From: Elusimicrobiota bacterium
GTDB taxonomy: Bacteria; Elusimicrobiota; Elusimicrobia; UBA1565; UBA9628
DNA: 64,000 bases
Direction: 5' to 3'
Assembly: GCA_023249675.1 (NCBI GenBank)
Contig: JAHFCE010000006.1
Location: 72,325-136,324, forward strand
Below, one piece after another: positions 5,804 to 59,797 of this stretch (positions within the stretch are counted from its first letter, which is position 1; the number at the start of each line of letters is the position of its first letter). The position numbers and the translations under genes were made by a program. The notes under the pieces were generated by a model. The model was given only the letters and a program-made list of their open reading frames with translations. It did not search any database and had not been told where the DNA came from.

Positions 5804-6921
5804 ACGAAACTTTGATCATGGCCGGCTCGCGCACGCCGTTCGCCGCATGGAGCTTCGGCGTCACCGGACGCGGCGCGCCGGGCGGCGCGCTCAAGGAGCT
5901 CGATCCCCAGGATCTCGGCGCCGCGGCGCTCAAAGGCGCGCTCGCGCGCGCGCGCCTCTCGCCTCGCGACCTCGGTTTTGTCGCCTTCGGCAACATGTAC
6001 CAAGTCGGGCCTCATGGCTGCTACGGCGCGCGCTACGTTGCGCAACGCGCGGGCTGCCCGCCGGAAACGACCGGTGCGGCCGTCGCGCTCGCCTGCGGCA
6101 CAGGCCTCTTAGCGCTCACGACTGCCGCGGACGCCGTCGCGCGCGGCGAGGCCTCGGTCGCCGCCGCCGTGGGCGCGGACGCGCCCAGCCGCCTGCGCCG
6201 CGACATTTTCGTGCCCTCGTTCACCGACCTGTCCTGCGGCAAGCACATCGCCAAGACCGCCGAGGAACGCGCCCATGAAGCGGGACTTCCACGCGCAGCC
6301 ATGGACGCGTGGGCGCTGCGCTCGCACATGAAAGCGCGCGCCGCCTCCAGGCTTCGCGCCGAGGAAATCATCCCCGTCGCCGGCCTCGCCGATGACGACG
6401 CGATCCTCGAGAGCCCGATGCCTGAGAATTTCGCGGCGGCGAAACCCCTGTTCAGCGACGGAACGACCGTGATGACGCACGCAAACGTGCACGCCGTCGT
6501 GGACGGCGGCGCAGCGCTCATCCTCGCCGCGCCGAAAGCCGCGACAGGCCGCGCGCTCGGTCGCTTCGTTTCGTCCGCACTGGTTGGCGTCGCGCCAGAG
6601 CGCATGGCCTACGCCGCCGTGCCCGCCGTCCGCCTGGCCCTCGAGCGCGCCCGCTGGCGCGCCGCCGAGGTCGACGTCTGGGAGATCAACGAGACCTTCG
6701 CGGCACAGATCCTGCTCGATCAAGCCGAGCTCCAGATCGAAGCGGAACGCATCAATCCCAACGGCGGCGCAATCGCGCTCGGCCATCCCTTCGGCGCAAC
6801 GGGCGTGCGCCTCGTCCACACGCTTCTGCTCGAATTGCGCCGCCGGTCCCGCCGGCGCGGCGTGGCCGCCATCAGCGTCGGCGGCGGCCTCGGCATCGCC
6901 GTCTGCGTCGAAGCGCTTTAA
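5800..6921 (+). CDS. thiolase family protein (acetyl-CoA C-acyltransferase)
   Basis: Thiolase C-terminal signature NPNGGAIALGHPFGATG and ISVGGGLG are present. There is an ATGA overlap with the hemD stop. Confidence 0.85.
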   Translation: MNETLIMAGSRTPFAAWSFGVTGRGAPGGALKELDPQDLGAAALKGALARARLSPRDLGFVAFGNMYQVGPHGCYGARYVAQRAGCPPETTGAAVALACGTGLLALTTAADAVARGEASVAAAVGADAPSRLRRDIFVPSFTDLSCGKHIAKTAEERAHEAGLPRAAMDAWALRSHMKARAASRLRAEEIIPVAGLADDDAILESPMPENFAAAKPLFSDGTTVMTHANVHAVVDGGAALILAAPKAATGRALGRFVSSALVGVAPERMAYAAVPAVRLALERARWRAAEVDVWEINETFAAQILLDQAELQIEAERINPNGGAIALGHPFGATGVRLVHTLLLELRRRSRRRGVAAISVGGGLGIAVCVEAL

Positions 6922-7745
6922 AAGCGAAAGGCGATCGTGATGCGGTTGACGGTGCCGAGGGCGCCGAAGGGAATCCACGCGTAGTCAAGGCGCAGGGTGT
7001 TGAAGTCGAAGCCCGCGCCGGCGGAAACGCCGGCGAACCCATCGACGCCGCGCGTGCGGTTCTGGTCGTAGCCGCCGCGCACGCTGACGATCCAAGGTTT
7101 GGCGGAGCCGACCTTCGAAGCGGGAATGCGCGCCTCGACGCCGAGCGAGGTGTAGAGATCCTGGTCGACGGGCAGATTGACGTCGAGGCCGGCGTCGAAC
7201 GTCGGCGATAGGTGCCACAGGCCGCCGGCACGAATCCGAGCCGGCAGCGGGTCGGCGACGCCGCCGAGCTTGAGAGGCGGGCCGATGTTCGAAACCGAGA
7301 AGCCGGCATCCAGAGGGCCGTCACCGATGTCGGCGACGTTCCGGGCGAGGAGACCGAAGTCCGCGGCGGCCGTCGTGCCGCTGCGGTCGTCGAGCGTCGC
7401 ACGGATGATCTTAAGCCCGCCCGCGAGCGCGACGGGACCAGCGAGGCGGCGCGCGTACCATGCGCCGAGTGCTAGGTCCGTCGGCGTGAACTTGCCGGTC
7501 GCGTCGCCCAGGGCGTTGTACGCGGTCTGCGCGCTCTGCGACGCATAGAGCAGGCCCGCCGCAAAAGCGCCGTCGCGGCCCAGAGGACGAGCGTAGGCGA
7601 CGGAGCCGGAATAGGCGGACTCGAGCAGCGCGTCATAGCCCAGGGCGGCCTCGCTTGGGGCCTCGGCCCCGAGGCGCGAGAGCGACGCGGGATTGAGGAA
7701 CACGGCCTCGGCGCCGAGGCCCGCGGCGGCGCAAACGCCGCCCAT
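6918..7745 (-). CDS. PorV/PorQ-family-like outer membrane beta-barrel protein (paralog of the 50008-50991 gene); true start probably upstream of 7745
   Basis: Contains a GxGAxAxFLNPASL motif and a C-terminal aromatic beta-strand ending ...ITIAFRF. It shares the DYAxxPxGALG C-terminal block with the 50008 gene. The same frame stays open upstream and encodes a signal-peptide-like segment and a GTTSAAFLK block before the first ATG. Confidence 0.6.
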   Translation of the reverse strand: MGGVCAAAGLGAEAVFLNPASLSRLGAEAPSEAALGYDALLESAYSGSVAYARPLGRDGAFAAGLLYASQSAQTAYNALGDATGKFTPTDLALGAWYARRLAGPVALAGGLKIIRATLDDRSGTTAAADFGLLARNVADIGDGPLDAGFSVSNIGPPLKLGGVADPLPARIRAGGLWHLSPTFDAGLDVNLPVDQDLYTSLGVEARIPASKVGSAKPWIVSVRGGYDQNRTRGVDGFAGVSAGAGFDFNTLRLDYAWIPFGALGTVNRITIAFRF

Positions 7746-7882
7746 CGCCGAGACGCGCGCGCCGCCCGGCGATTTCAGGAAGGCAGCGCTCGTGGTTCCG
7801 GCCGCGCGCGAAGAGAATGCTCCGCTGGGAAAGAGACCGGCGCGGGCGGAAGTCGCGGCGACGACGAATGCTGCGAAAAGAC

Positions 7883-8686
7883 CTAGACGGGCCAGACCGG
7901 CCCCCGCCGCGTCTTTTCTTCGGGCGCGGGAACTTCCGGGACCAGCTCCACCTGCACCGGGGCCGGAACCTGCTCGATCGACTCCGTGACCGAAGTCTCC
8001 GGTTCCGACGAGACGGGCGGCGCGGCGATCAGCGCGCTCAACTCCATGCGGATCGTTTCATCAGGCGACAGAGCAGCCTTGGCCTTCGGCTCCGGGACGG
8101 ACTCGGGTTCAGGAGCGGCCGCGACGGTCGCGGCCGGAGCCGGAGCCTTCACGTTTTCGACGGCGCGGGTCAGCTCTCCCAAACGGTCGATCAGCGCCTC
8201 ATCGCGCGCGGCGGCCCCGTTGAGCTCATCATCCACGCGCTTGGCCAGCGCACGCATCTCTTGGCGAAGCTCGGTCAGTTCGCCCTTGATGTTCTGGAGA
8301 TGGACGACGGCGGGGCTGATGCCGCCGGTCGTATTCGCCGGATCCTTGCGGCGCTCGGGCCCCGCGTACTCGCCTTGGGGCTTGGACGTGAGTTCCGGCT
8401 CGCGGACCGGATGCGAGGCGACTGCGGCGGCCGGGGCCTCCTCGGAGATGTGCACCGGACGGACCGCCGGGGAGTTTTCCTGCTCCGCGCCCTGCTCGCT
8501 CTCAGTGACATCGGCCGCTTCGGAAGCGACGCGGTACTGACCAAGGAGGAAGAGGAAGAGGACCCCGCTGATCAGGAGCCCCGCCGACGAGATATAAAAC
8601 CAGCCGTCCGCCCAAAGTCCCATCATCATAGTAGAGGAATGGTATCCGTCCGGGGAGGTAAAGTCAACCGAACTAAATAAGTACAA
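7883..8686 (-). CDS. hypothetical membrane-anchored protein with an Ala/Pro/Glu-rich low-complexity and coiled-coil region
   Basis: 267-aa ORF with one N-terminal TM helix (LLISGVLFLFLLGQY) and a heptad-like middle segment (LTELRQEMRALAKRVDDEL). No recognisable family. Coding status is moderately uncertain in a high-GC background. Confidence 0.45.
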   Translation of the reverse strand: MYLFSSVDFTSPDGYHSSTMMMGLWADGWFYISSAGLLISGVLFLFLLGQYRVASEAADVTESEQGAEQENSPAVRPVHISEEAPAAAVASHPVREPELTSKPQGEYAGPERRKDPANTTGGISPAVVHLQNIKGELTELRQEMRALAKRVDDELNGAAARDEALIDRLGELTRAVENVKAPAPAATVAAAPEPESVPEPKAKAALSPDETIRMELSALIAAPPVSSEPETSVTESIEQVPAPVQVELVPEVPAPEEKTRRGPVWPV

Positions 8687-34671: not shown

Positions 34672-34682
34672 TTTGGTAACCG
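34672..34682. repeat. 11-bp direct repeat TTTGGTAACCG, copy 1 (copy 2 at 35706-35716), bracketing the second nucleotidyltransferase module
   Basis: Exact 11-mer found twice, immediately 5' of the 34686 gene and 36 nt 3' of the 35670 stop. An inverted copy TTACCAAA lies at 35675-35682. Confidence 0.4.
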
Positions 34683-34685
34683 AAC

Positions 34686-35012: not shown

Positions 35013-35670
35013 TCTGTGCCTGGAAGTCCTAAGGCGGCTGGACCGCGCCGGCGTGCTCGAGGAGCTCGTGCTCGTCGGAAGCTGGTGCACTCATTTCTAC
35101 AATCGCTATTTCGAGGGCAAGGCCAAGCTCTCCGCCCTCCGGACGCGCGACATGGACTTCCTGGTGCGCCGACCTCCTCGCTTCAAGGTAAAGGTCGAAG
35201 TCTCCACCCTACTGAAGGACCTCGGCTTCCTTCCAGACCTCCGGCCGGAGGGCTACGTCAGCTTGAGCCACCCAGATTTGATCATCGACTTTCTGATCGC
35301 CGAGAGGGGGAAAGGTTCCGAGATGGCGATCCCGATCGAGGCGCTAGGCATCCGCGCCCAGCCGCTGCGTTTTCTCGACTTCCTCACGCGCGATACGATC
35401 GTCGTGAGCATCGACGGCCTCGATTTGCAGCTGCCGCATCCGGCCAACTTCGCCCTTCACAAGCTCATTATCAGCAGCCGTCGACCAAAGCCCGAGAAGC
35501 GCGAGAAAGATCTCAGACAGGCTCTCGAGATTCTCGACGTCCTCAGAGATCTTGGCCGCGGAGAAGAGATTCTCTCCAAGTTCGCGGATATGCCCGCTGG
35601 CTGGCGCAAAATCGCGATTACGGTGCTCAACGACGCGGACCGGCACGATATTTCACGATTCTTGCAGTAG
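34984..35670 (+). CDS. nucleotidyltransferase-fold protein (minimal pol-beta-like NTase motif GS...DxD), uncharacterised family
   Basis: 228 aa. LVLVGSWCTHFY ... RTRDMDFLV matches the hG[GS] ... [DE]h[DE]h nucleotidyltransferase signature. A C-terminal roughly 110-aa helical extension is present. Confidence 0.6.
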   Translation: MKEKESAPVDLCLEVLRRLDRAGVLEELVLVGSWCTHFYNRYFEGKAKLSALRTRDMDFLVRRPPRFKVKVEVSTLLKDLGFLPDLRPEGYVSLSHPDLIIDFLIAERGKGSEMAIPIEALGIRAQPLRFLDFLTRDTIVVSIDGLDLQLPHPANFALHKLIISSRRPKPEKREKDLRQALEILDVLRDLGRGEEILSKFADMPAGWRKIAITVLNDADRHDISRFLQ

Positions 35671-43530: not shown

Positions 43531-44244
43531 ATGATCGATCTCTTCGGCCTCGGCAAGCAGCAGGACCCCCAAGAACCTCGAGCGCCTTCAGAGCCCCCGT
43601 CTCCGTCCGAACCCTCGGTGAGGACGCCGGCGCCGCACGGTTCGCACAAGCTCTGGGCCTTTCTGCTCGTGCTCGATTCCGTGTTCGTAATCATATTTGC
43701 CGGTGCTGTGACTGCGAAGGTGTACCAGCACTGGAAGGCTCCCGTGATCGCGCCCGCGCGGATCGCTCGCCGCCGACCCGCGAAGACCGCGCCCGCGGCT
43801 GTCCCCGTCGCGGCACCCGCAGCCGCCCCCGTTGCAACGTCCGCGCCCAGCCCGACTCCAGAACCATCGAAACCCGCTGCCATTGCGCCGCGCCCGCCCA
43901 AGCCCTCGATGCTCACGGAAGCGCCCAAACGCCGCGAAACGCCGAAACTCGCAGCACCTCCCGCAAAAGCGGACGACCGCGCCATAGGGCCTGGAAAGAT
44001 CAAGGCACTGCGCACCGAGTTCAGGGTCCATGCGCCTCAAGCGAAGGCCGTTGAGCTTGTCGGCGCGTTCATCGTTCGCGGCGGGCGCAAGGAGATGACC
44101 CGCCAAGACGACGGCGCGTGGACTGTCACGCTGTACCTCAATCCCGGCTCCTACCGCTATTTCTTCTTCGTGGACAAGAAAAAGCAGATGGACCCCGAAA
44201 ACCCGCACTCGGAAAAAGGCGCCTCCCTCCTGACCATACCCTAA
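43531..44244 (+). CDS. hypothetical single-pass membrane protein with Pro/Ala-rich linker and C-terminal CBM48/AMPK-beta-like glycogen-binding domain
   Basis: TM helix LWAFLLVLDSVFVIIFAGAV. C-terminal about 90 aa show the CBM48-like pattern (FRVHAP.A..VELVG.F....R.EM.R.DDG.WTVTL.L.PG.Y.Y.F.VD). Confidence 0.55.
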   Translation: MIDLFGLGKQQDPQEPRAPSEPPSPSEPSVRTPAPHGSHKLWAFLLVLDSVFVIIFAGAVTAKVYQHWKAPVIAPARIARRRPAKTAPAAVPVAAPAAAPVATSAPSPTPEPSKPAAIAPRPPKPSMLTEAPKRRETPKLAAPPAKADDRAIGPGKIKALRTEFRVHAPQAKAVELVGAFIVRGGRKEMTRQDDGAWTVTLYLNPGSYRYFFFVDKKKQMDPENPHSEKGASLLTIP

Positions 44245-44317
44245 AAGAGGGTAAGCCTTCTGTATTGATTTCGTAACAGGTCCTCGTTACACTCTTTTGA
44301 GCGCGGGCCCCAGTTCC

Positions 44318-47300
44318 ATGCGGCTGAGCGCGACCTTGATGACCGGCCTCACGATGCGACGCCTTTCGACGGCCCTGGCCGCGGCATTTCTTTTGGCCGC
44401 TCTCCCATCCGCCTCCCCGGCCGCGACGATTCGCCGCGTCTCCCACACGGCAACCTTGCTGCCCAACGGCGACCTGCTCATCGTGGGCGGCGTCGATGAA
44501 ACCGGAGCCACCCTCAGCTCCTTCGCGATCGTCCCCGCCACGGGCGGAGCCATCATCAGTCCCACTGTATCCGCCATGACCTTCGGGCGATCTTCTCACA
44601 CCGCGACCTTGATGACCAACGGCTGCGTGCTGGTCATCGGCGGCAACTCCGCGGCCAGCGACACTCTCTCTCCCTCCGCAGAAAACCGCGCCGAGATCTA
44701 CAACCCAGCCTCAGGATCGTGGACCAATCTCGGCGCGTTCGGCACCGCGCGCTACAACCACACCGCAACCTTGCTCAATGACGGCAAGGTCCTGATCTGC
44801 GGCGGCCAAGACTCCTCGGGAAACGCGATCTCGACCTGCGACTTATACACACCGAACGCGGCCTGCACGGTGGCCGGAACGATCAGCGCGACACCAAGCC
44901 TGCTGCAGGCGCGCTACAACCACACCGCGGTCCTGCTCAAGGACGGCAAGGTCTGGTTCGCGGGCGGACGCAATCCCGCCGCCACGGGCGTCTACCTGCC
45001 GACCACCGAGCGCTACGACCCCGGAAGCGGCGTCTTTCAGTCCGCCTCGCCGCTCATCGAGGCCCGGTCCCAGCACACCGCGACCCTCATGGGTGACGGC
45101 AAGGTGCTCGTGGTCGGCGGCTACAACGCGCGCGACGTGATCGCCAACAAAGGCACCACCGAAAGCGCCGAGATCTTCGATCCGGTTTCCAACAGCGTGA
45201 CCCCGGCCGCCTCGATGACCGCGCGCCGCCACGCGCACGCCGCCACGCTCTCCGCCAACGGCACGGTGGACATCTTCGGCGGCCTGGGCAACGTCACGAC
45301 GAGCTATGTCAACCCGAGCGCAGCTTTCGTGAGCGGAAGCTCGATCACCTTTGGCGCCCCGAACTCGGTGATGACGTCGCTGGCGACGATCACCACCGGC
45401 TACGGTCTGATTCCCCTGGATTATCAGCTGGGCAAGGCGGTCAGCGGCGCGATTGCGGACGGCGAAATGTGGCTGTCATCACCCACGGTCAAGACGACTT
45501 GGGGGGAAATCGATTTCACGCCGGCCAGCGAGACAGCAACAACGGGCCTGCGCATCAACCTCGCCGGCGCCGAAGTCGGCTGCTCGGCCACGACCGGCCT
45601 GTGTGGGAACGTCAAAACCACCGGCGCACTCTGGCAAATGCAAGGGTCGGGAGCCCAAGCCGTCTTCTTCCGGCGCAACGCCGTCGCCCCCATCGGAACG
45701 GCATACGTCAGCACCGGCACTTTGACCTACGCCGCCACGCCCCTCAACACTGCGAGCCCGCTCGCATCTTTAAACCCAGTGGCCTCAAGCTTTACAACGA
45801 CCATGGCGATCTCGATGAACAACAAGCTCATCGGCTACAAGATCAACAGCGCTACCTTCACCATCACCGCCGGCAGCATCGTGCAGGCCAGTTCCTTTAC
45901 GGTCACGCTCACCAGCGGCACCGGCGTCTCGACGGGGTCGATCTTTGCGGACGCGCTGGGCAACGGGAAATCCACCTTCACCATTACCTTCTACGGCCTT
46001 GAGGGCGATATCGCGTACACCGGCGCGGATCCCCAGTCGTTCGCATCGCCGCGCTCGATTCCTCTCGCCGGCGCGGCCGCCCCCCTGACCCTCACCATGA
46101 CCATGACATACACCGCGAGCGGCGCGGACCTCAGCGGCGAGACATTCAACGTCGACGTCGCCACGGTCGTGATCCGCAAGATGATCTTCGCCGATCATGA
46201 AATCTACAACCCCAAAGCGAACAGCTGGGCCCTCAAGTCCACTGGCATCAGCGTCGCAAGCGCGCAGCGCTACGGCCACTCCGCCACCGTGCTGGCCAAT
46301 AACGACGTGGTCTTCTACGGCGGCCGCGCCTGCTCGGGTGCTGTCTGCGCCACGCAGACGGCCAACGCCACGACCGCCATCCAACTACTCTATTCCGAGA
46401 AGAACTTCGCCAATCCGTCGGGCCAAGCCGCCGGCAAGCGCGCATTCCATACCACGACCTTGCTGCCCAACGGCGACCTCCTGGTCGCCGGCGGCACCAA
46501 TGGCCCCAGCATCCTCGGCACCGCCGAAATCTTTAATCCGACCACAGAGACGTTCTCGCCAATCACGGGAACGATGCGCTATGTCCGCGACCTGCACACC
46601 GCCACCTTGCTGCCCAACGGCCGGGTCCTGATCGCCGGCGGCTTCACGACGAACTCAGCCAGCACCGGCTCGACCAATACGAGCGAGATCTACTATCCCG
46701 ACACCAAGGTCTTCCTTGAGACGACTCCGATGATCAGTTCGCGCAGCAACCACAGCGCCATCCTGCTGCCGAGCGGAAACATCTTCGTGGCCGGCGGCTT
46801 TGGAACAGGGGACGTCATCAGCGATAGCGCGGAGATCTACATCTCAACGAAGGCCCGCTGGGAGGCGGCCGCTACGATGACGGCCTGCGGCGCGCGCGCC
46901 ATCCACGCGACAGTGCAGCTCAAGGACGGGCGCATCATGCTCATCGGCGGCGTCAACGCAAACGGGGTCCTCGACACCAGCGCCCTCTACAATCCGACAC
47001 TCAATACCTGGAGCTGTGGCGCCGCCACCATGCCAACACCGCTGCGCTCGCACACGGCGACCTTGCTCTTCGACGGCCGCGTCCTCGTTGTCGGCGGCAA
47101 CGACGGCTTGGGTGAAGTCAACTTTTCCTCCATATACGACCCCGTTCTAAACAACTGGACGACCACCGGCACCCAGCCCCTGATCCAACCCCGCTTCAAC
47201 CACACCGCAACTGTGCTGCCCAACGGCAACGTCCTCATCACGGGCGGCTCCCGAAAATTCGCGGGCGTGCCGACCATGCTTGAGACCTTCCATGTCAACG

Positions 47301-50011
47301 GCAGCTCGTGGGTCACCGGCGAAATCCCCGCCACGTTCAGCGGCGGCCCGCGCGCCTTCCACACGATGACTTTGGCGCTCAACAACAAGGTGTACGGCAT
47401 CGGCGGCAGCGATGGCGTCATCGGCGGCAGCGGCGTCACGCTCTACAATACGATCGAAGCCGGCTACTTCAGCGCCACACCCGACAACTTCTCGAAAGAC
47501 GCACCCCCGAGTATCCGCCAATCGACCATCACGACGACGACAAATTTGACAACGGGCAAGGCGACGTTTCTGGAAGGCAATATCCTGCGCGTCGACGGCA
47601 ATCAGTTCCGCGGCGGTACGGAAGCCTCGGGCGGCGGATCCGCCTCCGGAAACTCGGCCTTCAGCTTTCCGCACCTGGTCCTACAGCAAGTCGATGGCTC
47701 CGGCGGCGCCGCCTCGCAGTCCAACGGTGGCTTCATCGTGGATCTCACCACCCATATCTTCTCCAATTCGGCCAACACCGCGACGGACACTTCGCTGACG
47801 GTCTTGCTGCCCCCGACCGCATCCTCGATGCCTTACGGCTGGTACGCACTGCGCACCGGGGCCAACGGCGTCTACTCCGACGGCAAGCTCGTGCAGGTCG
47901 GCCCGGCCATACCCAACGCGGCGCCCACCGGCCTCGCCGGCGTCACCCAAAGCACGTGGGCGATCACCTGGACCTGGACCGCGCCCGCGGGAACCATCGA
48001 CGGCTACAACGTCTACAACGCCACGAGCGGCGTCTTTCTGAGCACGATCCCGGTGCCGGCTTCGGGTTCGCCGACCTATTACCAGACCAATCTCGCCCCG
48101 AGTGCGACCTCCTCGATTCTCGTCGCCGCCTACACGCTCTCCGGCGACGGCCCGCTCACAGCCTCGCCGACGACCTACACGTTCTCCACATGTCCCATCA
48201 ATGTGGCGATCACCTCGGTGACGTCCTCGGACCTTCTGCTGACCTGGGGCACGAACGGGAACACCTCTCCCGGCACGGTCTACGAGGTCAGCCAGGCGAG
48301 CAGCAACTTCGACGCGGCAGACATCTCCACGCCCGTCCCCTCCGTGTTCAACCTGACGACGAACTTCACGACCATCCCCAATCTCTCCGCGAACACCACG
48401 TATTACTTCCGCGTGCGCGCTTTCAATCTGGCCGGACTGCCCTCGCCGTTCAGCGTCAGCGTCACCACCCGCACCCGAGCGCCGGTCACCCAGGCGATCG
48501 TCACAACGAGAACCGCCACGTCGATTGACTGGGGCTGGACCGACCCCGGAGGCGTCACCAACTTCCGCGTCTACAACGCGACGAGCGGCGTTCTGCTCGG
48601 CACGCCCGTCGTGTCCACCTTCACCGAGGTCGGCCTCGGGACCAACACCCAGCACGCGATCCGCGTCAGCGCGGTTACGAACGCCGGCGAAGGCCCGCTG
48701 TCGCCGTCCGCCTCGGCCTACACCTCCGCCGCGGCCCCGGGGCCGTTCACACCCACGATCACCGGCTTGACGACGGGTAGTTTCCTCCTCAACTGGACCT
48801 TCAACGGCAATCCCTTGCAGACACTGTACCAGGTCCAGGTCACCTCCTACGCAGGCAACGGCTCGGTCTTCGCCACGTTCACAACCACCACCACGGCGTT
48901 CAGCGCAGGCTTCGGCGGCTTTTCACCCTCCACGCGCATCGACTATACGATCGTCGCGATCAACGGAGACGGCCTTAACTCGGCGGCAGTCATCGGCTCG
49001 ACATGGACCCTGCCGACCGCCCCGATTTCTCTGGCCTCGCCTGGAACAACGCCCACGACCATCTCGATCGGCTGGGGCACCAACAACAACTCATCCTCGG
49101 CCACCTACCAGGTCACTTATACGACGAACGACTTCGTCCTCATCTCCACCGCGATCGCCTTCGGGGCCAACTTCGGAGGAACCAGCGCGACGATCACCGG
49201 CCTCGTCACCTCGGCGACCTACTCGATCCGCGTGATCGCGAGTAATCCGTTCGGCCAGCCCTCAGCATTCTCCAACGTCCTGAACCTGAGCCCCTCCAAC
49301 GGCGGCGCCTCGGTCGGCTCAATCGCGGGTCCGATACGCGCCACCGCGGACTCCTCGCTGTTCGGCTTGTTGGGCGATGGTCGCCAGATCCTCCTGCGCG
49401 CGCCCGCGCGCGCCTTCCCCAGCGACGTGACGGTCACGGTCTCTTCATTCGTACCTACCTCCTACCAGCCCACCGGCATGCTGTGCCCGACTGCGACCAA
49501 CATCGCCTTCTCGATCTCCGACGCCCCCGCGCTTCAGCCGATCGGCAGCCTGTATCTCACCTTCAGCTACACGCCAGCCGAGCTCGGCGCCATCTCGGCC
49601 AATCGCGCGCTGCTGCTGCGCTATGACCCGGCCAGCAACACCTGCGTGCCGCTTGAGACCACGGTCGACACCGTCAATAGCCAGATGACCGCGCGCATCA
49701 ACCACTTTTCGCTCTTCCAAGTCGGCTCGGTTCCGCTCGCGACCACGGTCGAAACCGCGCGCCTCTTCCCGAACCCCTATTACACCAGTCGCGACAGCTT
49801 CCTGACGATCGACAACGTCCCGCCCAGCGCCCGAGTGCGCATCTTCACCTTGCGCGGCGAGGAAGTGCTTGACGTCAAGGCGAACTCCACAGGCCTACTG
49901 ACGTGGAGCGGCACCAACGGTTTCGGTCGGGCGGTCGCCAGCGGCGTCTACCTCGTGATGGTTGAGTCCGGGGGCACGAAGAAAATACTTAAGCTGGCGG
50001 TGATCCGGTGA
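44318..50011 (+). CDS. giant secreted multi-domain protein: two blocks of Kelch/galactose-oxidase-type beta-propeller repeats, central region, fibronectin type III-like repeats, and a C-terminal T9SS-type (Por secretion) sorting domain
   Basis: Signal peptide. At least 12 repeats of the Kelch blade motif R(Y/S)xHTATLLxxGxVLxxGG. FN3-like periodic Thr/Ser-rich repeats at about aa 1150-1600. The C-terminal 80 aa match the T9SS CTD pattern (FPNPY...RVRIFTLRGEEV...GVYLVMVESGGTKKILKLAVIR). The first in-frame ATG at 44318 is used; a TTG ORF begins at 44297. Confidence 0.85.
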   Translation: MRLSATLMTGLTMRRLSTALAAAFLLAALPSASPAATIRRVSHTATLLPNGDLLIVGGVDETGATLSSFAIVPATGGAIISPTVSAMTFGRSSHTATLMTNGCVLVIGGNSAASDTLSPSAENRAEIYNPASGSWTNLGAFGTARYNHTATLLNDGKVLICGGQDSSGNAISTCDLYTPNAACTVAGTISATPSLLQARYNHTAVLLKDGKVWFAGGRNPAATGVYLPTTERYDPGSGVFQSASPLIEARSQHTATLMGDGKVLVVGGYNARDVIANKGTTESAEIFDPVSNSVTPAASMTARRHAHAATLSANGTVDIFGGLGNVTTSYVNPSAAFVSGSSITFGAPNSVMTSLATITTGYGLIPLDYQLGKAVSGAIADGEMWLSSPTVKTTWGEIDFTPASETATTGLRINLAGAEVGCSATTGLCGNVKTTGALWQMQGSGAQAVFFRRNAVAPIGTAYVSTGTLTYAATPLNTASPLASLNPVASSFTTTMAISMNNKLIGYKINSATFTITAGSIVQASSFTVTLTSGTGVSTGSIFADALGNGKSTFTITFYGLEGDIAYTGADPQSFASPRSIPLAGAAAPLTLTMTMTYTASGADLSGETFNVDVATVVIRKMIFADHEIYNPKANSWALKSTGISVASAQRYGHSATVLANNDVVFYGGRACSGAVCATQTANATTAIQLLYSEKNFANPSGQAAGKRAFHTTTLLPNGDLLVAGGTNGPSILGTAEIFNPTTETFSPITGTMRYVRDLHTATLLPNGRVLIAGGFTTNSASTGSTNTSEIYYPDTKVFLETTPMISSRSNHSAILLPSGNIFVAGGFGTGDVISDSAEIYISTKARWEAAATMTACGARAIHATVQLKDGRIMLIGGVNANGVLDTSALYNPTLNTWSCGAATMPTPLRSHTATLLFDGRVLVVGGNDGLGEVNFSSIYDPVLNNWTTTGTQPLIQPRFNHTATVLPNGNVLITGGSRKFAGVPTMLETFHVNGSSWVTGEIPATFSGGPRAFHTMTLALNNKVYGIGGSDGVIGGSGVTLYNTIEAGYFSATPDNFSKDAPPSIRQSTITTTTNLTTGKATFLEGNILRVDGNQFRGGTEASGGGSASGNSAFSFPHLVLQQVDGSGGAASQSNGGFIVDLTTHIFSNSANTATDTSLTVLLPPTASSMPYGWYALRTGANGVYSDGKLVQVGPAIPNAAPTGLAGVTQSTWAITWTWTAPAGTIDGYNVYNATSGVFLSTIPVPASGSPTYYQTNLAPSATSSILVAAYTLSGDGPLTASPTTYTFSTCPINVAITSVTSSDLLLTWGTNGNTSPGTVYEVSQASSNFDAADISTPVPSVFNLTTNFTTIPNLSANTTYYFRVRAFNLAGLPSPFSVSVTTRTRAPVTQAIVTTRTATSIDWGWTDPGGVTNFRVYNATSGVLLGTPVVSTFTEVGLGTNTQHAIRVSAVTNAGEGPLSPSASAYTSAAAPGPFTPTITGLTTGSFLLNWTFNGNPLQTLYQVQVTSYAGNGSVFATFTTTTTAFSAGFGGFSPSTRIDYTIVAINGDGLNSAAVIGSTWTLPTAPISLASPGTTPTTISIGWGTNNNSSSATYQVTYTTNDFVLISTAIAFGANFGGTSATITGLVTSATYSIRVIASNPFGQPSAFSNVLNLSPSNGGASVGSIAGPIRATADSSLFGLLGDGRQILLRAPARAFPSDVTVTVSSFVPTSYQPTGMLCPTATNIAFSISDAPALQPIGSLYLTFSYTPAELGAISANRALLLRYDPASNTCVPLETTVDTVNSQMTARINHFSLFQVGSVPLATTVETARLFPNPYYTSRDSFLTIDNVPPSARVRIFTLRGEEVLDVKANSTGLLTWSGTNGFGRAVASGVYLVMVESGGTKKILKLAVIR

Positions 50012-50991
50012 GGCTGCGCCAAATCGCCGTCTTGGCCCTCCTGCTCGCCCGTCCTGCGAGCGCGTCGGACTTCGGCCGGGCGGCCGTGGGAACCTCCGGC
50101 TCGGAGTTCCTGCTCTTCGACACGAGCGCGCGCGGAATCGCAATGGGCGGCGCCTACTCCGCGGCGACAAACGACGCCTCCTCGCTCTATTGGAACCCCG
50201 CGGGACTTTCACAGGTGCCCCGCCTCTCGGCCACCTTCCTGCATGCGCAATACGTGGCGGACGTCACCTACAACGCCGCGTCCGTCGCCAAACGCGTCAA
50301 CGACACCTCCGTGCTGGCGGCCGGCGTGCGCTACCTCGACCTCGGGGCGATCACCCGGACCGACGTCAACGGCCTGGAACGCGGCCAGTTCCACCCGCGC
50401 TCCTACCTGGCCGAGCTTGGCTGGGGCCAGTCCATCTACGACCTGTCCGACAGCGAGGTGGATGTGGCCATGGGCGTCAGCGTCAAGTACCTGCGCTCCG
50501 ACCTCGTGGAGCGCGCCTCCGCCTACGGCGGCGACTTCGGCGTGCACTCGCGCTATTACGGCGCCTCGCAGACCTACGACGTCTCGATGGCGGTCCAGAA
50601 CATGGGTGTCGGGCAGAAATTTGACAAGGTCCGCGACACCTTGCCCACACGCGTGCGTTTCGGCGGCGGCGTCCGTCCGGTCAAACCCCTGTTGCTCACC
50701 ATCGAGGCGATCGCTCCGATCAACAACGCCCCGCATGGAGCCGCGGGCATGGAATACACGGCCGGAATCCAGAAGAACCTGCAGTGCGCGGTGCGGGCCG
50801 GCCTCAACTCCCTGACGTACGATTCACTGGGCCTGAGCTCGATCGTCAGCTTCGGCTTCGGCCTGCAACTGTCCGACCTCAGCTTCGACTACGCCTTCGC
50901 GCCGACGGGAGCGCTGGGCGCCTCGATTCACCGCGTCTCGCTGAGCTTCAACCTGCCTGCGAAAATCTCGCGGCGCTACCGAGAGAGATAG
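50008..50991 (+). CDS. PorV/PorQ-family outer membrane beta-barrel protein (T9SS cargo-shuttle-like)
   Basis: Signal peptide. N-terminal family block GTSGSEFLLFDTSARGIAMGGAYSAATNDASSLYWNPAGL. Alternating beta-strand pattern to the C-terminus. The GTG start overlaps the giant gene's stop (GTGA). Confidence 0.75.
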   Translation: MRLRQIAVLALLLARPASASDFGRAAVGTSGSEFLLFDTSARGIAMGGAYSAATNDASSLYWNPAGLSQVPRLSATFLHAQYVADVTYNAASVAKRVNDTSVLAAGVRYLDLGAITRTDVNGLERGQFHPRSYLAELGWGQSIYDLSDSEVDVAMGVSVKYLRSDLVERASAYGGDFGVHSRYYGASQTYDVSMAVQNMGVGQKFDKVRDTLPTRVRFGGGVRPVKPLLLTIEAIAPINNAPHGAAGMEYTAGIQKNLQCAVRAGLNSLTYDSLGLSSIVSFGFGLQLSDLSFDYAFAPTGALGASIHRVSLSFNLPAKISRRYRER

Positions 50992-51025
50992 CCTGGACGA
51001 CCCTGGTTTTTCGTAGAATGCCCGC

Positions 51026-52027
51026 GTGAAAGCGGTCGTCTTGAAGGCGTTCGGCGGCGTCGAGAACCTGGAGCTGCAGACCGTCGCCGATCCCGTCCCC
51101 GGCCCCGGCGAAATCCTTCTTCGCGTGCGTGCCTGCGCGCTCAACCACCTTGATCTGTGGATCCGCGAGGGGCTTCCCGGTTCGAAGGTGAAGACGCCCC
51201 ATGTCCTCGGCTCGGACGTCGCGGGCGAGACCGAGGGCCGGCGTGTCGCCGTCTACCCAGGCCTGTTCTGCGACGCCTGCCCGGCGTGCAAGGACGGACG
51301 CGAATCCGACTGCCCCGACTTCGGCATCATCGGCGCCTACGGCGGGTCCCAGGGCGGCTACGCCGAAAAGATCGCCGTGAAGGCAGCACACCTGCTCAGA
51401 GTCCCGGACGGGATGTCCTTCACGGACGCGGCGTCTTTACCTCTGACCGTGCTCACGGCCTGGCGCATGCTCAAAACCTTGGGCGAGGTCAAGACGGGCC
51501 AGACGGTCCTCGCCATCGGCGCGGGTGCGGGCGTCTCAGTCGCCGGCATCCAGATTGCGAAGACCCTTGGAGCAATCGTGATCGCGACGACAACGGACGC
51601 CGCCAAGGTCGATCGAGCTCGCGCGCTCGGAGCCGACCACGTCCTCCTGGCCCCGCCGGCTGAGCTTGCGCGCGAGGTGCGCCGGCTCACCAAAGGTGCT
51701 ATGGCCGACGTCGTCTTCGAGCACGTCGGCCCCGCGCTGTTCATGGACGCCCTGAAGTGTCTGCGCCCTTCAGGACGCCTCGTCACGTGCGGCTCGACCT
51801 CGGGCGCGAAGCTTGAACTCGATCTGCGCTACGTGTTCAGCCGCCAGCTCCGCATCCTCGGCTCGCGGATGGGGAGCCTCGCCGAGATGCACGAGGCCTG
51901 GAGACTCGTCGAGGCGGGCTTGGTCAAGCCCGTCGTGGACAAGGTCTTCCCGCTCGACGCAGCGGCGGCCGCGCATTCGCGCCTCGAATCACGCGGCCAA
52001 TTCGGCAAGGTCGTGCTCTCGCGGTGA
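51026..52027 (+). CDS. zinc-binding/MDR-family alcohol dehydrogenase or quinone oxidoreductase
   Basis: GroES-like N-domain (MKAVVL ... VRACALNHLDLW) and Rossmann motif LAIGAGAGVSVAGIQIAK. 333 aa. Confidence 0.85.
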   Translation: MKAVVLKAFGGVENLELQTVADPVPGPGEILLRVRACALNHLDLWIREGLPGSKVKTPHVLGSDVAGETEGRRVAVYPGLFCDACPACKDGRESDCPDFGIIGAYGGSQGGYAEKIAVKAAHLLRVPDGMSFTDAASLPLTVLTAWRMLKTLGEVKTGQTVLAIGAGAGVSVAGIQIAKTLGAIVIATTTDAAKVDRARALGADHVLLAPPAELAREVRRLTKGAMADVVFEHVGPALFMDALKCLRPSGRLVTCGSTSGAKLELDLRYVFSRQLRILGSRMGSLAEMHEAWRLVEAGLVKPVVDKVFPLDAAAAAHSRLESRGQFGKVVLSR

Positions 52028-53676
52028 AGAGCTCGGCCTGCGTTCCCAGCTGGCTCCTGGCCGCGGCTCTGAGCCTGCCGCTGCTCGTCCTCGGCGCGCC
52101 GCTCATTGAAATCGACGATGCCCGCTACGCCGAGGTCCCGCGCGCGATGGCGGCCTCCGGCGACTGGGTCCTGCCGAGCCTCAATGCGATGCCCTACATC
52201 GAGAAACCTCCGCTGTGGTACTGGCTCAGCGCCACCTCAATCAAGGTGTTCGGCCCCTCCGAGGCCGCCGCGCGCCTGCCGATGCTCCTGCTCGCTGTGC
52301 TCGGAGCGGGGGGGGTCTTTTGGCTGGGCTCGTGGCTGTACTCGCCGGACATCGGACGCTGCGCCGCGCTCGCAACGGCGACGTCCGGGATGTGGCTTTT
52401 CCTCACCCACAACCTGACGCTCGATCTGCCCGTGAGCGTCTTCCTGCTGTGGAGCACCGCGTTCATCCTGCGCGCGCTCGAACGGCCCGCCGACGCCCGC
52501 TGGGCCGCGCCCGCGGCGTGGCTTGCCGCAGCGCTCGCGTTCCTGAGCAAGGGGCTGATCTCCGCGCTTTTCCCGCTTCTCTGGACGATCACTTTGATCG
52601 GCCTCTGTCCAAAATGGCGCCGCCCCGCATGGAAGCTGCTCTCGCCCCTGGGCATCGTTCTCGCGGTCCTGCTCGTAGCACCCTGGTTTCTCGCTGTACA
52701 GGCGAGAAGGCCTGACTTCTTCCACACCTTCTTCATCGAACAGCACTTCCAACGCTACCTCACGCCGAAGTATTCCCGAGGCGCGCCATGGTGGTTCTAC
52801 CTCGCGGTGCTGCCGGGCGGCCTGCTCCCATGGACGGCGCCGTTTCTGTCAGGACTGTCGAAAGTCTTAAGACGCCCGTTCACGGATCCCCGCGCGACAG
52901 CGCTCGCCCTGTGGGCGCTCGGGGTCGTCGCCTTTTTTACGACCTCGCACTCGAAACTCGCAACCTACGCCCTTCCGGTCCTGCCGCACGCGGCTCTGCT
53001 GGCGGCGGCCTCCATCGAGGACGGCCTGCCAAAATGGTCCCGTTCTCTTTGCCGTGCCTTGGGCGTCATCCTTCTTCTGGGCTCCGTCGCCGGCGTTCTG
53101 CTCTATTGCCGCCTGCCTCATCTCGCCTTGCCGGAAGTCGCCGCGAATGCTCCGCTCCTGCGCCGCCTGGTCGTTGCAGCATCCGCTTGTCTGGCGTGCC
53201 TGGCCGCCGCGCAGCTCTACGCACCGTCATCGAAACGCCCAGCATTGGCGCTCGGCCTTGGCGGCGCCCTGGCGGGATTGTGCGCGTTTGCCGCCGTTTC
53301 GGCCGCGTCTCCGCTGATCAGCGCCAAAGGGCTCGCGCTGGCCGTGAAAGAGTCCGCCCGCCCCGAAGACGAGGTCTGGTCTTACGACAGCTATCCGCAC
53401 GGCCTGCAGTTCTACACCGGACGCCCCGTTGACAAGATGGTCTACTTCGTCGGAGAGTTCCACTACGCGAAGCGCGACGCGGCAAACGCCGGGCGCTTCG
53501 GCGACGACGATGAGGTGAGGGCTCTGCCACGCAGAGGGGGACGAACCTTCGTCGTGATGAAGACCGGACGCCGCGCGCACTTCGAAACCGTGCCGCCAAA
53601 AGGCTCGATCGCGTCTTGGCGCCAGTTCGGGCCCTGGTCGCTGGCCGAGGTCCGGTCGGCCGCACGCTCGCGTTAA
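52024..53676 (+). CDS. ArnT/PMT-family (GT39/GT83) membrane glycosyltransferase
   Basis: N-terminal loop with the catalytic DD/DE-like motif (IEIDDARYAEVPRAMAASGDWVLP) and YIEKPPLWYWL, followed by 11-13 TM helices. GTGA overlap with the upstream gene. Confidence 0.8.
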   Translation: MKSSACVPSWLLAAALSLPLLVLGAPLIEIDDARYAEVPRAMAASGDWVLPSLNAMPYIEKPPLWYWLSATSIKVFGPSEAAARLPMLLLAVLGAGGVFWLGSWLYSPDIGRCAALATATSGMWLFLTHNLTLDLPVSVFLLWSTAFILRALERPADARWAAPAAWLAAALAFLSKGLISALFPLLWTITLIGLCPKWRRPAWKLLSPLGIVLAVLLVAPWFLAVQARRPDFFHTFFIEQHFQRYLTPKYSRGAPWWFYLAVLPGGLLPWTAPFLSGLSKVLRRPFTDPRATALALWALGVVAFFTTSHSKLATYALPVLPHAALLAAASIEDGLPKWSRSLCRALGVILLLGSVAGVLLYCRLPHLALPEVAANAPLLRRLVVAASACLACLAAAQLYAPSSKRPALALGLGGALAGLCAFAAVSAASPLISAKGLALAVKESARPEDEVWSYDSYPHGLQFYTGRPVDKMVYFVGEFHYAKRDAANAGRFGDDDEVRALPRRGGRTFVVMKTGRRAHFETVPPKGSIASWRQFGPWSLAEVRSAARSR

Positions 53677-57347: not shown

Positions 57348-58202
57348 ATGTGCCGCCTCTTCGCGCAGGTCGCTTCGCAGCCCGCGTCCGCCCGGGACCT
57401 TCTCGTGGACGCGGAGTTCTCCCTGCTGCGCCAGGCCGACGCCGATCCGCAAAATCCCCAAAAAGACGGCTGGGGGCTCGCTTGGTTCGGAACTGCCGGC
57501 GAAGCGCACGTGGTCAAGAGCGGCCGGTCCGCGCCCGATGAGCACGCGCGCTTTACAGCCGCGGCCGATGCGGCGCGATCCTCTGTTATCCTTGGGCATA
57601 TCCGCGCCGCGTCAAAGGGCATCGGAATCGATGACGCACACGCACATCCTTTCAGCGATGAGGGCTGGGTATTCGCGCACAACGGGACTTTGTTCATCCA
57701 TCAGGAAGTCGCCGCGGCTCTCGGCCCCCGCCGCACGCGCCTGAAAACCGACAGCGACAGCGAGGTGTATTTCCAGCAATTCATGAAATTCCGGGCCGAG
57801 GGTGCTACGCCTTCAGCCGCGTTCGAGGCCTGCATCGCCGAGAACTGGCGGCTGTGGGACGCCTGCAAGTCCCGTTATCCCGAACTCGAGGCGCCCTACT
57901 CCAGCCTCAACGCGATCGCCTCCGATGGCAAAGCGATCCACGCACTTTGCCACGCCGCGCACCGCGGACGCGCCGAACACGCCGTCTGCCACCCGGATCA
58001 GCCTTGGTCGGTCATGAGCTTCACGACGCGCGACGGGCGCTTCGTGCTCGCAAGCGAGGGTGTCGACGGCAAAGAGTGGACGCGCCTGTCCCCGCCCGAG
58101 ACGATTTCAGCCGCGCCGTCCTCGACCGGCGTCGAAGTCCGCCGCCGTCCACTGAAGCTCGTCAGCCCGCTCGGTCCAGTTCCGGAGGCTTTCCAATCAT
58201 GA
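57348..58202 (+). CDS. class II (Ntn-type) glutamine amidotransferase domain protein
   Basis: Begins MCRLFA with the catalytic Cys at position 2 after Met removal, and has a GHIRAAS block, typical of GATase_2 / YafJ / EgtC-like proteins. Confidence 0.7.
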   Translation: MCRLFAQVASQPASARDLLVDAEFSLLRQADADPQNPQKDGWGLAWFGTAGEAHVVKSGRSAPDEHARFTAAADAARSSVILGHIRAASKGIGIDDAHAHPFSDEGWVFAHNGTLFIHQEVAAALGPRRTRLKTDSDSEVYFQQFMKFRAEGATPSAAFEACIAENWRLWDACKSRYPELEAPYSSLNAIASDGKAIHALCHAAHRGRAEHAVCHPDQPWSVMSFTTRDGRFVLASEGVDGKEWTRLSPPETISAAPSSTGVEVRRRPLKLVSPLGPVPEAFQS

Positions 58203-58801
58203 AATATGTCCTTATCGTCTGCGCGATCGCCGCGGCATCCTTCGTGGCCTATCAGACATTCAAGCCGGCGCCTCCTCCTCCGCCGCCCGCGGTCCTCTCC
58301 GAACCCGCGATCCTATCCGAACCCGCTCCCGTCATCAACGAGGCTGAGCAGGCGAAGATCCTCAAATTGGCCGAGGATCAGGATCCCGGCGTGCGTTGGG
58401 AGGCCGTCGTCCTGCTCGACAAGATGAAGTCGCCGCAGGCGATGCCGATCTTGTTCCACATGCTGCAAAAGGACCTCGAGCCGACTGTGCGGGTCAAGGC
58501 CGCCGAGCTGCTGGGCGGCCGGAGCGGCCCCGATGTGCTCAACGCATTGGTCGGCGCGCTGAAAGACCAGGAAACCGACGTGCGCCTGGCGTCGCTGCGC
58601 GCGATCGGGAAGATCGGCGACTACTCTGTGGCCGGGGTCATCGCCGCGGGCCCCGTCAAGGACCAAGAGGAAAGCGTACGCCTCCAGGCGCTCATGACGT
58701 TGAACGCGCTCCAGGACAAACGACAGGCCGAAATCGACGCCGCGCGCGCGCGCTACGAACAGGAAAAAGCGGCGGCGGCGGAAGCGTCCAAGAAGAGGTA
58801 A
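58199..58801 (+). CDS. HEAT-repeat (PBS-lyase type) protein with N-terminal membrane anchor/signal
   Basis: N-terminal hydrophobic segment MKYVLIVCAIAAASFVAY, then three or more HEAT-like repeats (DPGVRWEAVVLL ... EPTVRVKAAELLG ... ETDVRLASLRAIG ... EESVRLQALMTL). ATGA overlap with the upstream gene. Confidence 0.65.
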   Translation: MKYVLIVCAIAAASFVAYQTFKPAPPPPPPAVLSEPAILSEPAPVINEAEQAKILKLAEDQDPGVRWEAVVLLDKMKSPQAMPILFHMLQKDLEPTVRVKAAELLGGRSGPDVLNALVGALKDQETDVRLASLRAIGKIGDYSVAGVIAAGPVKDQEESVRLQALMTLNALQDKRQAEIDAARARYEQEKAAAAEASKKR

Positions 58802-58804
58802 ACC

Positions 58805-59797
58805 ATGGAACTCACCGGCATCAAGGAGCTCAATAAGAAGGTCGCCGACGAAAGCCTGTTCATCTCGGATCTCAAGCGGGAGATCGGCAAGGTCATCATC
58901 GGCCAGGACGAGACGCTCGACCGCATCCTGGCGGCGCTCGTCGCCGGCGGCCACGTCCTGCTCGAGGGGGTACCCGGCCTCGCCAAGACTTTGACCGTCA
59001 AGACCTTGGCGCGCTGCGTGCGCGCCACGTTCTCGCGCATCCAGTTCACGCCCGATCTCCTGCCCGCCGACCTCACGGGCACGCTCATCCTCGATCCCAA
59101 AACCGGAGACTTCAAGCCCCGCAAAGGGCCCGTGTTCGCCAACCTCGTTCTCGCCGACGAAATCAACCGCGCTCCCGCCAAGGTCCAGAGCGCTTTGCTT
59201 GAGGCGATGCAGGAGCGCCAGGTCACGATCGGCTCCGAGACACACGCGCTGCCCGACCCGTTTCTCGTCCTCGCAACTCAGAACCCCATCGAGCAGGAGG
59301 GAACCTACCCGCTGCCCGAGGCGCAGATCGACCGCTTCATGATGAAGATCGGCCTCGGCTACCCGACCAAGGCTGAGGAGAAGCTGATCCTCGAGCGCAT
59401 GGCCGGAGGCATCCTGCCGGAGGTCAAGGCCGTCGCGACGCCCGAACAGCTCCACCGCGCGCGCGCGGTCGCGGCTGCGATCTACCTCGATGAAAAAATC
59501 AAGGACTACATCGTGGACCTCGTCTACGCGACGCGCGAGCCCGAGAAACACCGCCTCGCCTCGCACAAGCATCTGATCGCCTACGGGGCCAGCCCCCGCG
59601 CCACGATCTTCCTGGCGCAGGCCGCGAAAGCCCATGCGTTCATCAACGGCCGCGGCTACGTGACGCCCGAGGACGTCAAAACGATCGGGCCCGACGTCCT
59701 GCGCCACCGCGTGCTCGCCAGCTACGAGGCCGAAGCCGAGGGCGTGGACAGCGACAAGATCGTCCGCGCCGTCTTCGAGGCCGTCGAAGTCCCCTAG
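58805..59797 (+). CDS. MoxR-family AAA+ ATPase
   Basis: Walker A LLEGVPGLAKT, Walker B VLADEINRA and the MoxR-specific C-terminal region. 330 aa. Confidence 0.92.
   Translation: MELTGIKELNKKVADESLFISDLKREIGKVIIGQDETLDRILAALVAGGHVLLEGVPGLAKTLTVKTLARCVRATFSRIQFTPDLLPADLTGTLILDPKTGDFKPRKGPVFANLVLADEINRAPAKVQSALLEAMQERQVTIGSETHALPDPFLVLATQNPIEQEGTYPLPEAQIDRFMMKIGLGYPTKAEEKLILERMAGGILPEVKAVATPEQLHRARAVAAAIYLDEKIKDYIVDLVYATREPEKHRLASHKHLIAYGASPRATIFLAQAAKAHAFINGRGYVTPEDVKTIGPDVLRHRVLASYEAEAEGVDSDKIVRAVFEAVEVP

Follow-up and report, generated by a model that had tools for sequence, protein, structure and literature searches.

The window analysed here, a stretch of 64,000 nucleotides on contig JAHFCE010000006.1 of an Elusimicrobiota bacterium, carries a gene for a giant, predicted secreted Kelch/FN3 protein which ends in a C-terminal sorting domain (CTD) of the kind found in type IX secretion systems (T9SS). 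This gene overlaps the next one, which encodes an outer-membrane barrel of the PorV/PorQ family. The sequence-only reading of this DNA had left two options for the pair: either the T9SS core genes lie elsewhere, or the giant is a CTD cargo with a dedicated PorV-type partner. We favour the second option, because 70 of 78 related loci likewise associate a CTD gene with a barrel gene, although their passengers are not related to one another. We consider that the giant and the barrel probably form a cognate module, a cargo with its own carrier and anchor, in the manner of PorZ-PorQ or SprB-SprF. Judging from the sequences compared, it is a general rule in Elusimicrobiota and in several candidate phyla of the FCB (Fibrobacterota, Chlorobiota, Bacteroidota) superphylum that type A-like CTD proteins come with a PorV/PorQ-like barrel of their own.

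Recurrence of the gene pair

We scanned one genome per species by barrel alignment, taking as loci the best tblastn matches to the barrel of the window. This gave 80 loci, 78 of which have enough upstream sequence to be judged. The orthologous loci (26 of the 80, with 41-85% identity) are labelled Elusimicrobia or Elusimicrobiota in 25 cases, including one Endomicrobium label, and 'bacterium' in the remaining one. The other loci (26-42% identity) comprise Elusimicrobiota paralogues and members of several other phyla: Zixibacteria, Eisenbacteria, Ignavibacteria, Calditrichota, Krumholzibacteria, WOR-3, Coatesbacteria, Aerophobetes and Bacteroidota. When the 100-aa CTD was used to search proteins, there were 14 candidates only, most of them orthologue fragments, and the range of cargos was therefore explored with locally built hidden Markov models (HMMs) of the CTD, constructed from the orthologues and iterated on the six-frame open reading frames (ORFs) of the loci. 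The resulting model has 93 matches, of which 90 end at most 2 residues from the end of their ORF.

A locus was counted as paired when a CTD-terminated ORF lies on the strand of the barrel gene and stops upstream of it, 250 nt away at most. The 70 paired loci take in all the orthologues (25/25) and all the unclassified loci (11/11), along with 21/23 Elusimicrobiota paralogues, 12/17 loci of FCB phyla and 1/2 of other named phyla. Given how often CTD ORFs occur in this DNA without being adjacent to a barrel gene, about 1.5 pairs would be expected (P ~1e-111). In the paralogous pairs, the passengers include propellers of the PQQ/BamB-like, NHL and BNR-like kinds as well as proteins of 2,300-3,300 aa, and at least five metagenome-assembled genomes (MAGs) with the orthologous pair have a second pair. 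Among the orthologues, the architecture of the giant (Kelch block 1, middle region, Kelch block 2, post-propeller domain, FN3 array, pre-CTD domain, CTD) is complete down to 41% barrel identity.

Three other descriptions of these loci were tried and rejected. The passengers of the distant loci are not orthologues of the giant, as they have merely a generic FN3/Kelch similarity to it, in five cases. The distant loci are not canonical porU-porV pairs, since none of 19 upstream proteins matches the PorU sortase outside the CTD; no PorU was found among the upstream proteins tested, in Elusimicrobiota and FCB loci. Finally, the ORFs of 2,416-2,437 aa upstream of the barrels in loci L055 and L074 have no SprA match. 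The barrels of these two loci (9875-11485) bear an extra C-terminal extension of about 180 aa. One can also notice, in locus L039 (4381-12174), a CTD protein followed by two tandem PorV-like barrels, a small protein that matches the Lsa14 adhesin below threshold, and a peptidoglycan-binding protein of the OmpA/MotB type; this arrangement recalls PorP-PorE.

The C-terminal domain of the giant

The CTD reaches the final residue of the giant, whose N-terminus is, by eye, a Sec signal peptide. Residues 1816-1893 score 27.4 bits on the NCBIfam model TIGR04183 (T9SS type A sorting domain), above its cut-off of 23, and the last 90 residues of the protein reach 40.9 bits with the PorZ model, of whose 757 positions they match the C-terminal ones, 667-757. 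When the CTD segment alone was compared with Pfam, Por_Secre_tail (PF18962) gave 19.4 bits, CHU_C 18.8 bits and FlgD_ig 17.5 bits, all under the cut-offs of 27 bits. The domain is thus not a match to FlgD_ig only. It had been described as a canonical-looking T9SS CTD; the T9SS type is supported by TIGR04183 and by the fold matches given below, but the word canonical has to be given up, as the Pfam cut-off is missed. As far as such profiles can tell, this CTD is a divergent member of the T9SS sorting-domain class and not a textbook example.

We modelled aa 1635-1897 with AF2. The model is poor in its upstream part and good over the CTD, with a predicted local distance difference test (pLDDT) of 76-92. 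The top Foldseek matches of the modelled CTD are PorZ (5m11, E 4e-5), PorU (6za2) and the substrate CTDs 8glk_D, 8gl8_D and 8gl6_D; when it is compared with the CTDs of NucA, RemZ and RemA trapped on SprA-PorV, the template modelling (TM) score normalised to the target is 0.73-0.78. The predicted fold is therefore the seven-strand beta-sandwich of the solved CTDs.

The motifs FPNPY, VRIFTLRGE, ASGVYLV and KKILKLAVIR recur in the alignment of orthologues, and the lysine six residues from the C-terminal end, within KKILKLAVIR, is invariant in 11/11 aligned sequences. It matches the lysine, near-invariant in type A CTDs, which lies close to their C-terminus (PMC10994853). The CTD is also the most conserved domain of the giant among orthologues (48-88% identity, against 25-49% for the middle region), unlike the surface by which transient type A CTDs contact and bind the translocon, which is poorly conserved (PMC10994853). 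It is for this reason that a permanent and specific interface seems to fit better than a disposable signal: in a putative surface protein that otherwise evolves fast, the CTD has changed least, and the barrel beside it is very conserved. No second CTD was found in the window.

The PorV/PorQ-family barrel

The GTG start of the barrel gene (50008-50010) and the TGA stop of the giant (50009-50011) share the four nucleotides GTGA, as had been noticed in the sequence-only reading and as is seen in the junction sequence; the same overlap is present in one of the orthologous loci (L004). The barrel begins with a signal peptide (..ARPASA/SD, the slash marking the cleavage site). It had been called PorV-like, and it does score as a member of that family, with 155.6 bits on the PorV/PorQ model NF033709 (cut-off 90) and 41.3 bits on Pfam PorV (PF19572, cut-off 27). 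Its scores on the equivalog models are 106.9 bits for PorQ (NF033711, cut-off 220), 71.9 bits for PorV (NF033710, cut-off 250) and 57.5 bits for PorV2 (cut-off 325), all below the cut-offs. The sole sequence match in the PDB is Flavobacterium johnsoniae PorV (E 1e-7).

The AF2 model of the barrel, computed with 27 sequences, has a mean pLDDT of 82.6 and shows about 14 long strands after a short helical N-terminal segment. Foldseek places the PorV of the SprA complexes first (8gl6_F, E 8e-15; 6h3i_F, E 2e-13; TM score 0.69), followed by FadL and TodX (E 6e-9 or weaker, TM score about 0.55). More than 100 relatives with 62-93% identity come from metagenomes, and those which are named are Elusimicrobia or Elusimicrobiota. 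Outer-membrane beta-barrels are expected to end in an aromatic C-terminus; this one differs, as it ends in a basic tail, PAKISRRYRER (aa 317-327, 50959-50991), whose conservation in the 27 aligned sequences is 90% or more and which may be a periplasmic contact motif.

A probable cognate cargo and carrier

The domain identities, the predicted folds, the GTGA overlap and the recurrent pairing are direct observations. From them, and from precedents in T9SS, we infer a physical contact between CTD and barrel, the retention of the CTD, the exposure of the giant at the surface and the existence of a ligand. Judging from the signal peptides, Sec would export both the giant and the barrel, and the barrel, of 327 aa and FadL fold, would insert into the outer membrane. 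The beta-sandwich CTD of the giant would then bind the extracellular loops of the barrel, as type A CTDs do with those of PorV (PMC10994853), and would remain uncleaved, as do the CTD of PorZ on PorQ and that of PorU on PorV, so that the barrel would keep the giant on the cell surface. The FN3 array and the Ig-like domains would form a stalk, with the two N-terminal Kelch propellers as a distal head, probably binding a glycan or a protein. The 4-nt overlap of start and stop would help to keep the two partners at about the same level. We propose the barrel as a private carrier/anchor of the giant because of three precedents: PorV and PorQ anchor PorU and PorZ at the surface (PMC5562754), the CTDs of PorU and PorZ being retained (PMC10202324); for type B CTD proteins, cognate PorP/SprF barrels serve as carriers and anchors, sprB adjoining sprF (PMC9143113); and PorV binds CTDs through its loops.

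One of the closest known systems is the attachment complex of Porphyromonas gingivalis, where, in PorZ-PorQ and PorU-PorV, a surface protein made of propellers and a CTD is kept on a 14-strand barrel of the PorV/PorQ family by this CTD, which is retained (PMC5562754, PMC10202324). PorZ is the best HMM and fold match of the CTD of the giant, and the barrel scores higher on the PorQ model than on that of PorV. The match to PorZ is however confined to the CTD, the passenger of the giant being made of Kelch and FN3 domains, and the barrel reaches less than half of the PorQ equivalog cut-off. Moreover, the genes for cargo and barrel overlap here, the pairing is repeated for many cargos, and the lineage is Elusimicrobiota. 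In the type B systems SprB-SprF and PG1035-PorP, each cargo has its own 14-strand carrier/anchor barrel of the FadL family, and the adjacency of sprB and sprF (PMC9143113) follows the same logic as our 70 pairings. There the CTD is of another type (that of the giant is type A-like, as it passes TIGR04183 but has 18.8 bits against 27 on CHU_C), and no PorP/SprF family is among the matches of our barrel, so that merely the logic of the gene pair is shared. Lastly, F. johnsoniae PorV (6H3I, 8GL6) is the best structural match of the barrel as well as its sole PDB sequence match, but the identity is 18-20%, the lengths differ (327 aa against 402 for PorV), and PorV serves many cargos whereas the subfamily of our barrel is encoded one per cargo.

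Several facts weigh against this interpretation. The pairing rate describes the subfamily of the window barrel and not all PorV-like proteins. The second barrel gene of the window, described below, has no CTD gene as neighbour. The CTD is below the Pfam cut-off for Por_Secre_tail, with CHU_C and FlgD_ig scoring about equally. The barrel falls well short of the equivalog cut-offs for PorV and PorQ, and its family takes in FadL-like barrels unrelated to secretion (traces of Pfam UPF0164 and Toluene_X). Finally, no T9SS core gene that could account for the translocation step was seen in the DNA covered. The absence of core T9SS genes from the window, already noted from the sequence, is confirmed among its ORFs scanned with Pfam or NCBIfam, and extends to the 9 kb past its right edge; none was found either among 28 annotated proteins from eleven Elusimicrobiota-type loci. 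The simplest assumption would be that a SprA-type translocon is encoded elsewhere in the genome, because the same module exists in phyla of the FCB superphylum, to which the literature confines T9SS.

Other explanations of the pair

A more radical explanation, which we hold to be unlikely, is that the Elusimicrobiota have neither SprA nor PorKLMN, and that the pairs of CTD protein and private barrel are a self-contained system of export and display, independent of T9SS and perhaps standing to it as a minimal ancestor or a sister. For each CTD protein, both translocation and anchoring would fall to its own PorV-like barrel, possibly together with BAM or the adjacent coiled-coil protein, like a split autotransporter or a two-partner system. 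The carrier barrels of T9SS (PorV, PorQ, PorP/SprF) would descend from such pairs, from which they could have been recruited. The one-to-one pairing with diverse cargos in Elusimicrobiota agrees with this, as does the fact that no T9SS core gene appears in the Elusimicrobiota sequence examined; the sequence examined amounts, however, to only about 1.2 Mb of barrel-centred loci. In the literature searched there is likewise no report of T9SS, PorV or CTD sorting domains in Elusimicrobia; one preprint has GldAFG alone in one MAG and refers to Elusimicrobiota without a Gld system. A third gene also follows the barrel gene in most orthologous loci. It encodes a coiled-coil protein of 500-540 aa, with a proline-rich N-terminus and no Pfam domain, which we saw 3' of the barrel in 25 fetched orthologous loci, including relatives with 84-85% identical barrels. 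This gene is absent from the window, where the barrel gene and that of an alcohol dehydrogenase are separated by 35 nt (50991-51026), and hence it cannot be essential; tblastn with the coiled-coil protein had no match in loci L001, L002, L013, L029 and L030. Furthermore, folded propellers would not fit through a 14-strand barrel of the FadL type, which has an N-terminal plug and is not known to act as a translocator, and the same module is found in FCB phyla.

It is rather improbable, in our opinion, that the giant is an ordinary T9SS cargo of type A. Its CTD would then be transient and cut by a PorU-type sortase after passage through SprA, the giant would be linked to lipopolysaccharide (LPS) or released, and the barrel would be the general PorV shuttle of the organism, lying beside one cargo gene by chance. 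The TIGR04183 score above cut-off, the likeness of the CTD fold to substrate CTDs bound to PorV and the fold of the barrel, nearest to PorV, are all what such a cargo would give, and LPS-related genes (a KdsC-like phosphatase and an ArnT/PMT_2-like glycosyltransferase) stand in the conserved synteny. A general shuttle should not, however, pair one-to-one with cargos, as is seen in 70 of 78 loci, with several pairs per genome. The 71.9 bits of the barrel are remote from the 250 bits of the PorV equivalog, no PorU was found beside any barrel tested, the binding surface of transient type A CTDs is poorly conserved (PMC10994853) whereas no other domain of the giant is as conserved as its CTD, and the literature searched has no T9SS in Elusimicrobia.

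Another reading takes the barrel for a FadL-like channel that imports hydrophobic compounds and has no functional link with the giant, next to which it would lie through incidental operon organisation. This would account for the weak Pfam traces to Toluene_X/FadL and UPF0164 and for FadL and TodX as next-best structural matches, but it is very unlikely, as PorV is the better structural match (E 1e-14 against 1e-8, TM score 0.69 against about 0.55) and the sole PDB sequence match, and as the adjacency to CTD genes is kept across phyla with unrelated passengers (P ~1e-111). No Pfam or NCBIfam match to type V secretion (Omp85/POTRA TpsB or autotransporter beta-domain) was found on the giant or on the barrel.

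Layout of the giant and possible role of its Kelch blocks

The features of the giant, of its barrel and of the second paralogue are collected in Table 1. On the + strand, the ORF of the giant can start at TTG 44297 (44297..50011, 1904 aa) or at ATG 44318 (44318..50011, 1897 aa), with the TGA at 50009-50011. The length of 1904 aa given from the sequence alone is thus that of the TTG start and does not go with the coordinate 44318 attached to it, which gives 1897 aa. A public gene call on the same contig (ENA assembly ERZ27297570, a contig of 154.5 kb) starts the giant at the ATG. The N-terminus MRRLSTALAAAFLLAALPSASPAA, followed by T, reads by inspection as a Sec signal peptide, with a positive n-region, a hydrophobic core and the predicted cleavage site ASPAA/T.

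Table 1. Features of the giant gene, of the overlapping barrel gene and of the second barrel gene in the window
Feature	Position	Strand	Basis
Predicted Sec signal peptide MRLSATLMTGLTMRRLSTALAAAFLLAALPSASPAA, cleaved before T	44318..44425	+	Translation; cleavage site inferred from sequence
Kelch block 1, six blades, aa ~38-340	44429..45337	+	Six motif matches, aa 43-322; Pfam Kelch_1/3/4/6
Middle beta-rich region, unassigned fold, aa 341-645	45338..46252	+	Least conserved part among orthologues, 25-49% identity
Kelch block 2, seven to eight blades, aa 646-1060	46253..47497	+	Seven motif matches, aa 654-977
Post-propeller beta domain, aa 1061-1200	47498..47917	+	Sub-threshold similarity to galactose-oxidase-like E-set domain
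FN3 array, aa ~1201-1650, presumed stalk	47918..49267	+	PF00041, E 8e-26, 4 stretches
Pre-CTD beta domain, aa 1651-1805	49268..49732	+	AF2 beta strands aa ~1745-1803, pLDDT 71-83; low confidence upstream
T9SS type A-like sorting/anchor CTD, aa 1806-1897 and stop codon	49733..50011	+	HMM, AF2, Foldseek, orthologue alignments
PorV/PorQ-family outer-membrane barrel, 327 aa, ~14 strands	50008..50991	+	HMMs, AF2, Foldseek, PDB sequence match
Second PorV/PorQ-family paralogue	6918..7895	-	NF033709, 115.3 bits; probable CTG start at 7895

Two Kelch blocks, with a motif repeated at least 12 times, and FN3-like repeats had been recognised in the translation, and both hold. The blade motif H[ST]A..L..G..(V/I/L)..GG has 13 strict matches as a regular expression, six in the first block and seven in the second; one further, degenerate blade lies near aa 1015. 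Pfam Kelch families match the giant with E values of 1e-28 to 1e-57, those of the second block being Kelch_4, Kelch_KLHDC2 and Beta-prop_ATRN-LZTR1, and four FN3 copies are significant in Pfam. The middle region (aa 341-645) gave nothing in Pfam at E<=0.1 beyond a 14-bit trace of pilin-D3, and the pre-CTD domain (aa 1651-1805) gave no Pfam match.

The galactose oxidase/GlxA family resembles the second half of this layout, as it has a seven-blade Kelch propeller followed by a beta-sandwich, to whose E-set domain our post-propeller domain is weakly similar. The scores are nevertheless distant: the GlxA model (NF052501) reaches 71 bits where its cut-off is 800, in a match of about 100 residues, and PF09118 gives 21.6 bits against 25 on the post-propeller domain, which has no PDB sequence match at E<=10 (aa 1061-1200). 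The best PDB sequence matches of Kelch block 2 are plain, non-enzymatic Kelch proteins. By these HMM scores and PDB matches, the reading of the Kelch blocks as galactose oxidases appears unsupported, and we tentatively favour a binding role for them. As a lead only, we mention the segment 'DLTTHIFS ... PYGWYALRTGANGVYS' of the giant (aa ~1155-1200, 47780-47920), which we take to resemble the His motif and C-terminal strand of the galactose-oxidase E-set domain; its 'TTH' stands where, presumably, the E-set domain of that family carries a copper-ligand histidine.

Some observations on the giant may be added. Its gene has a negative GC skew, strong with respect to its neighbours (-0.14 to -0.21 over 44000-50000). 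The protein contains 13.8% Thr, and 46% of T+A+G+S; with an ArnT/PMT_2-type glycosyltransferase of the GT-C class (52024-53676) kept in synteny, periplasmic glycosylation of this Ser/Thr-rich protein is a possibility. Three orthologous loci, L003 (GCA_965283875.1), L022 (CP096137.1) and L026, have shortened giants of 874-1170 aa without the first Kelch block. In the L003 region (42-9990), the tal/pgi gene is split and there are many small ORFs on the opposite strand. The short giants may be assembly frameshifts or pseudogenes instead of real short forms.

The second paralogue and the genomic setting

A second PorV-like paralogue had been placed at 6918-7745. Its family is right, as the NF033709 score indicates, but its start is probably not, since the listed ORF begins at an internal ATG. 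The frame is open for about 100 codons upstream, without ATG, GTG or TTG, and contains from the CTG at 7895 a clean signal peptide, (L)ARLGLFAAFVVAATSARA followed by GLFPSG after the cleavage site. Extended in this way, the protein has 325 aa and matches Pfam PorV from profile position 7. Either the CTG serves as a non-canonical start, or an ATG has been changed to CTG, in the genome or by error. Upstream, the neighbour is an ORF of 267 aa (7883-8686, - strand) with one transmembrane helix and coiled-coil character, which overlaps the CTG start; opposite to it, an arginine-rich ORF on the + strand (7817-8680) looks like an antisense artefact.

The sequence-only reading had placed this DNA in a high-GC lineage outside the Bacteroidota, in agreement with its origin from Elusimicrobiota; its G+C content is 62-71% outside one low-GC island at 34-36 kb (0.57). 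Upstream of the pair lie rpiB, a fused transaldolase/PGI gene, and genes for a KdsC-like phosphatase and a CBM48 protein; downstream lie those for a zinc alcohol dehydrogenase (ADH), the ArnT/PMT_2-like glycosyltransferase and an RDD protein, and a MoxR/Bat operon. Relatives with 63-68% barrel identity share the gene order rpiB, tal/pgi, kdsC, CBM48, giant, barrel, ADH, PMT_2, RDD. Housekeeping and envelope genes form a conserved setting for the pair in each orthologous locus seen, which suggests a core envelope role in the clade.

Elsewhere in the window, an AbiEi/AbiEii toxin-antitoxin pair and an NTP_transf_8 nucleotidyltransferase (33312-35670) occupy the sole low-GC stretch, which is probably a small mobile insertion. 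A complete operon of MoxR, DUF58, VWA, BatD and TPR genes (Bat-like) extends from 58199 to 64000 and past the right edge. The ORF 58313-59809 (- strand) overlies the called HEAT and MoxR genes and is probably an artefact.

Significance of the pairing

According to the reviews searched, T9SS is a system of Bacteroidota/FCB, and the only cases of cognate carrier barrels described there are PorP/SprF with type B CTDs and those of two parts of the machine, PorU and PorZ. What is new here is that type A-like CTD proteins appear wired one-to-one to PorV/PorQ-like barrels, in Elusimicrobiota and in several FCB candidate phyla. Whether this is an accessory of T9SS or an autonomous system would be decided by the presence or absence of SprA and PorKLMN in Elusimicrobiota. 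If the phylum has a SprA translocon, the known range of T9SS would widen and a third class of dedicated carriers would be defined. If it has none, the pairs would amount to a novel path to the cell surface and would hint at the origin of T9SS.

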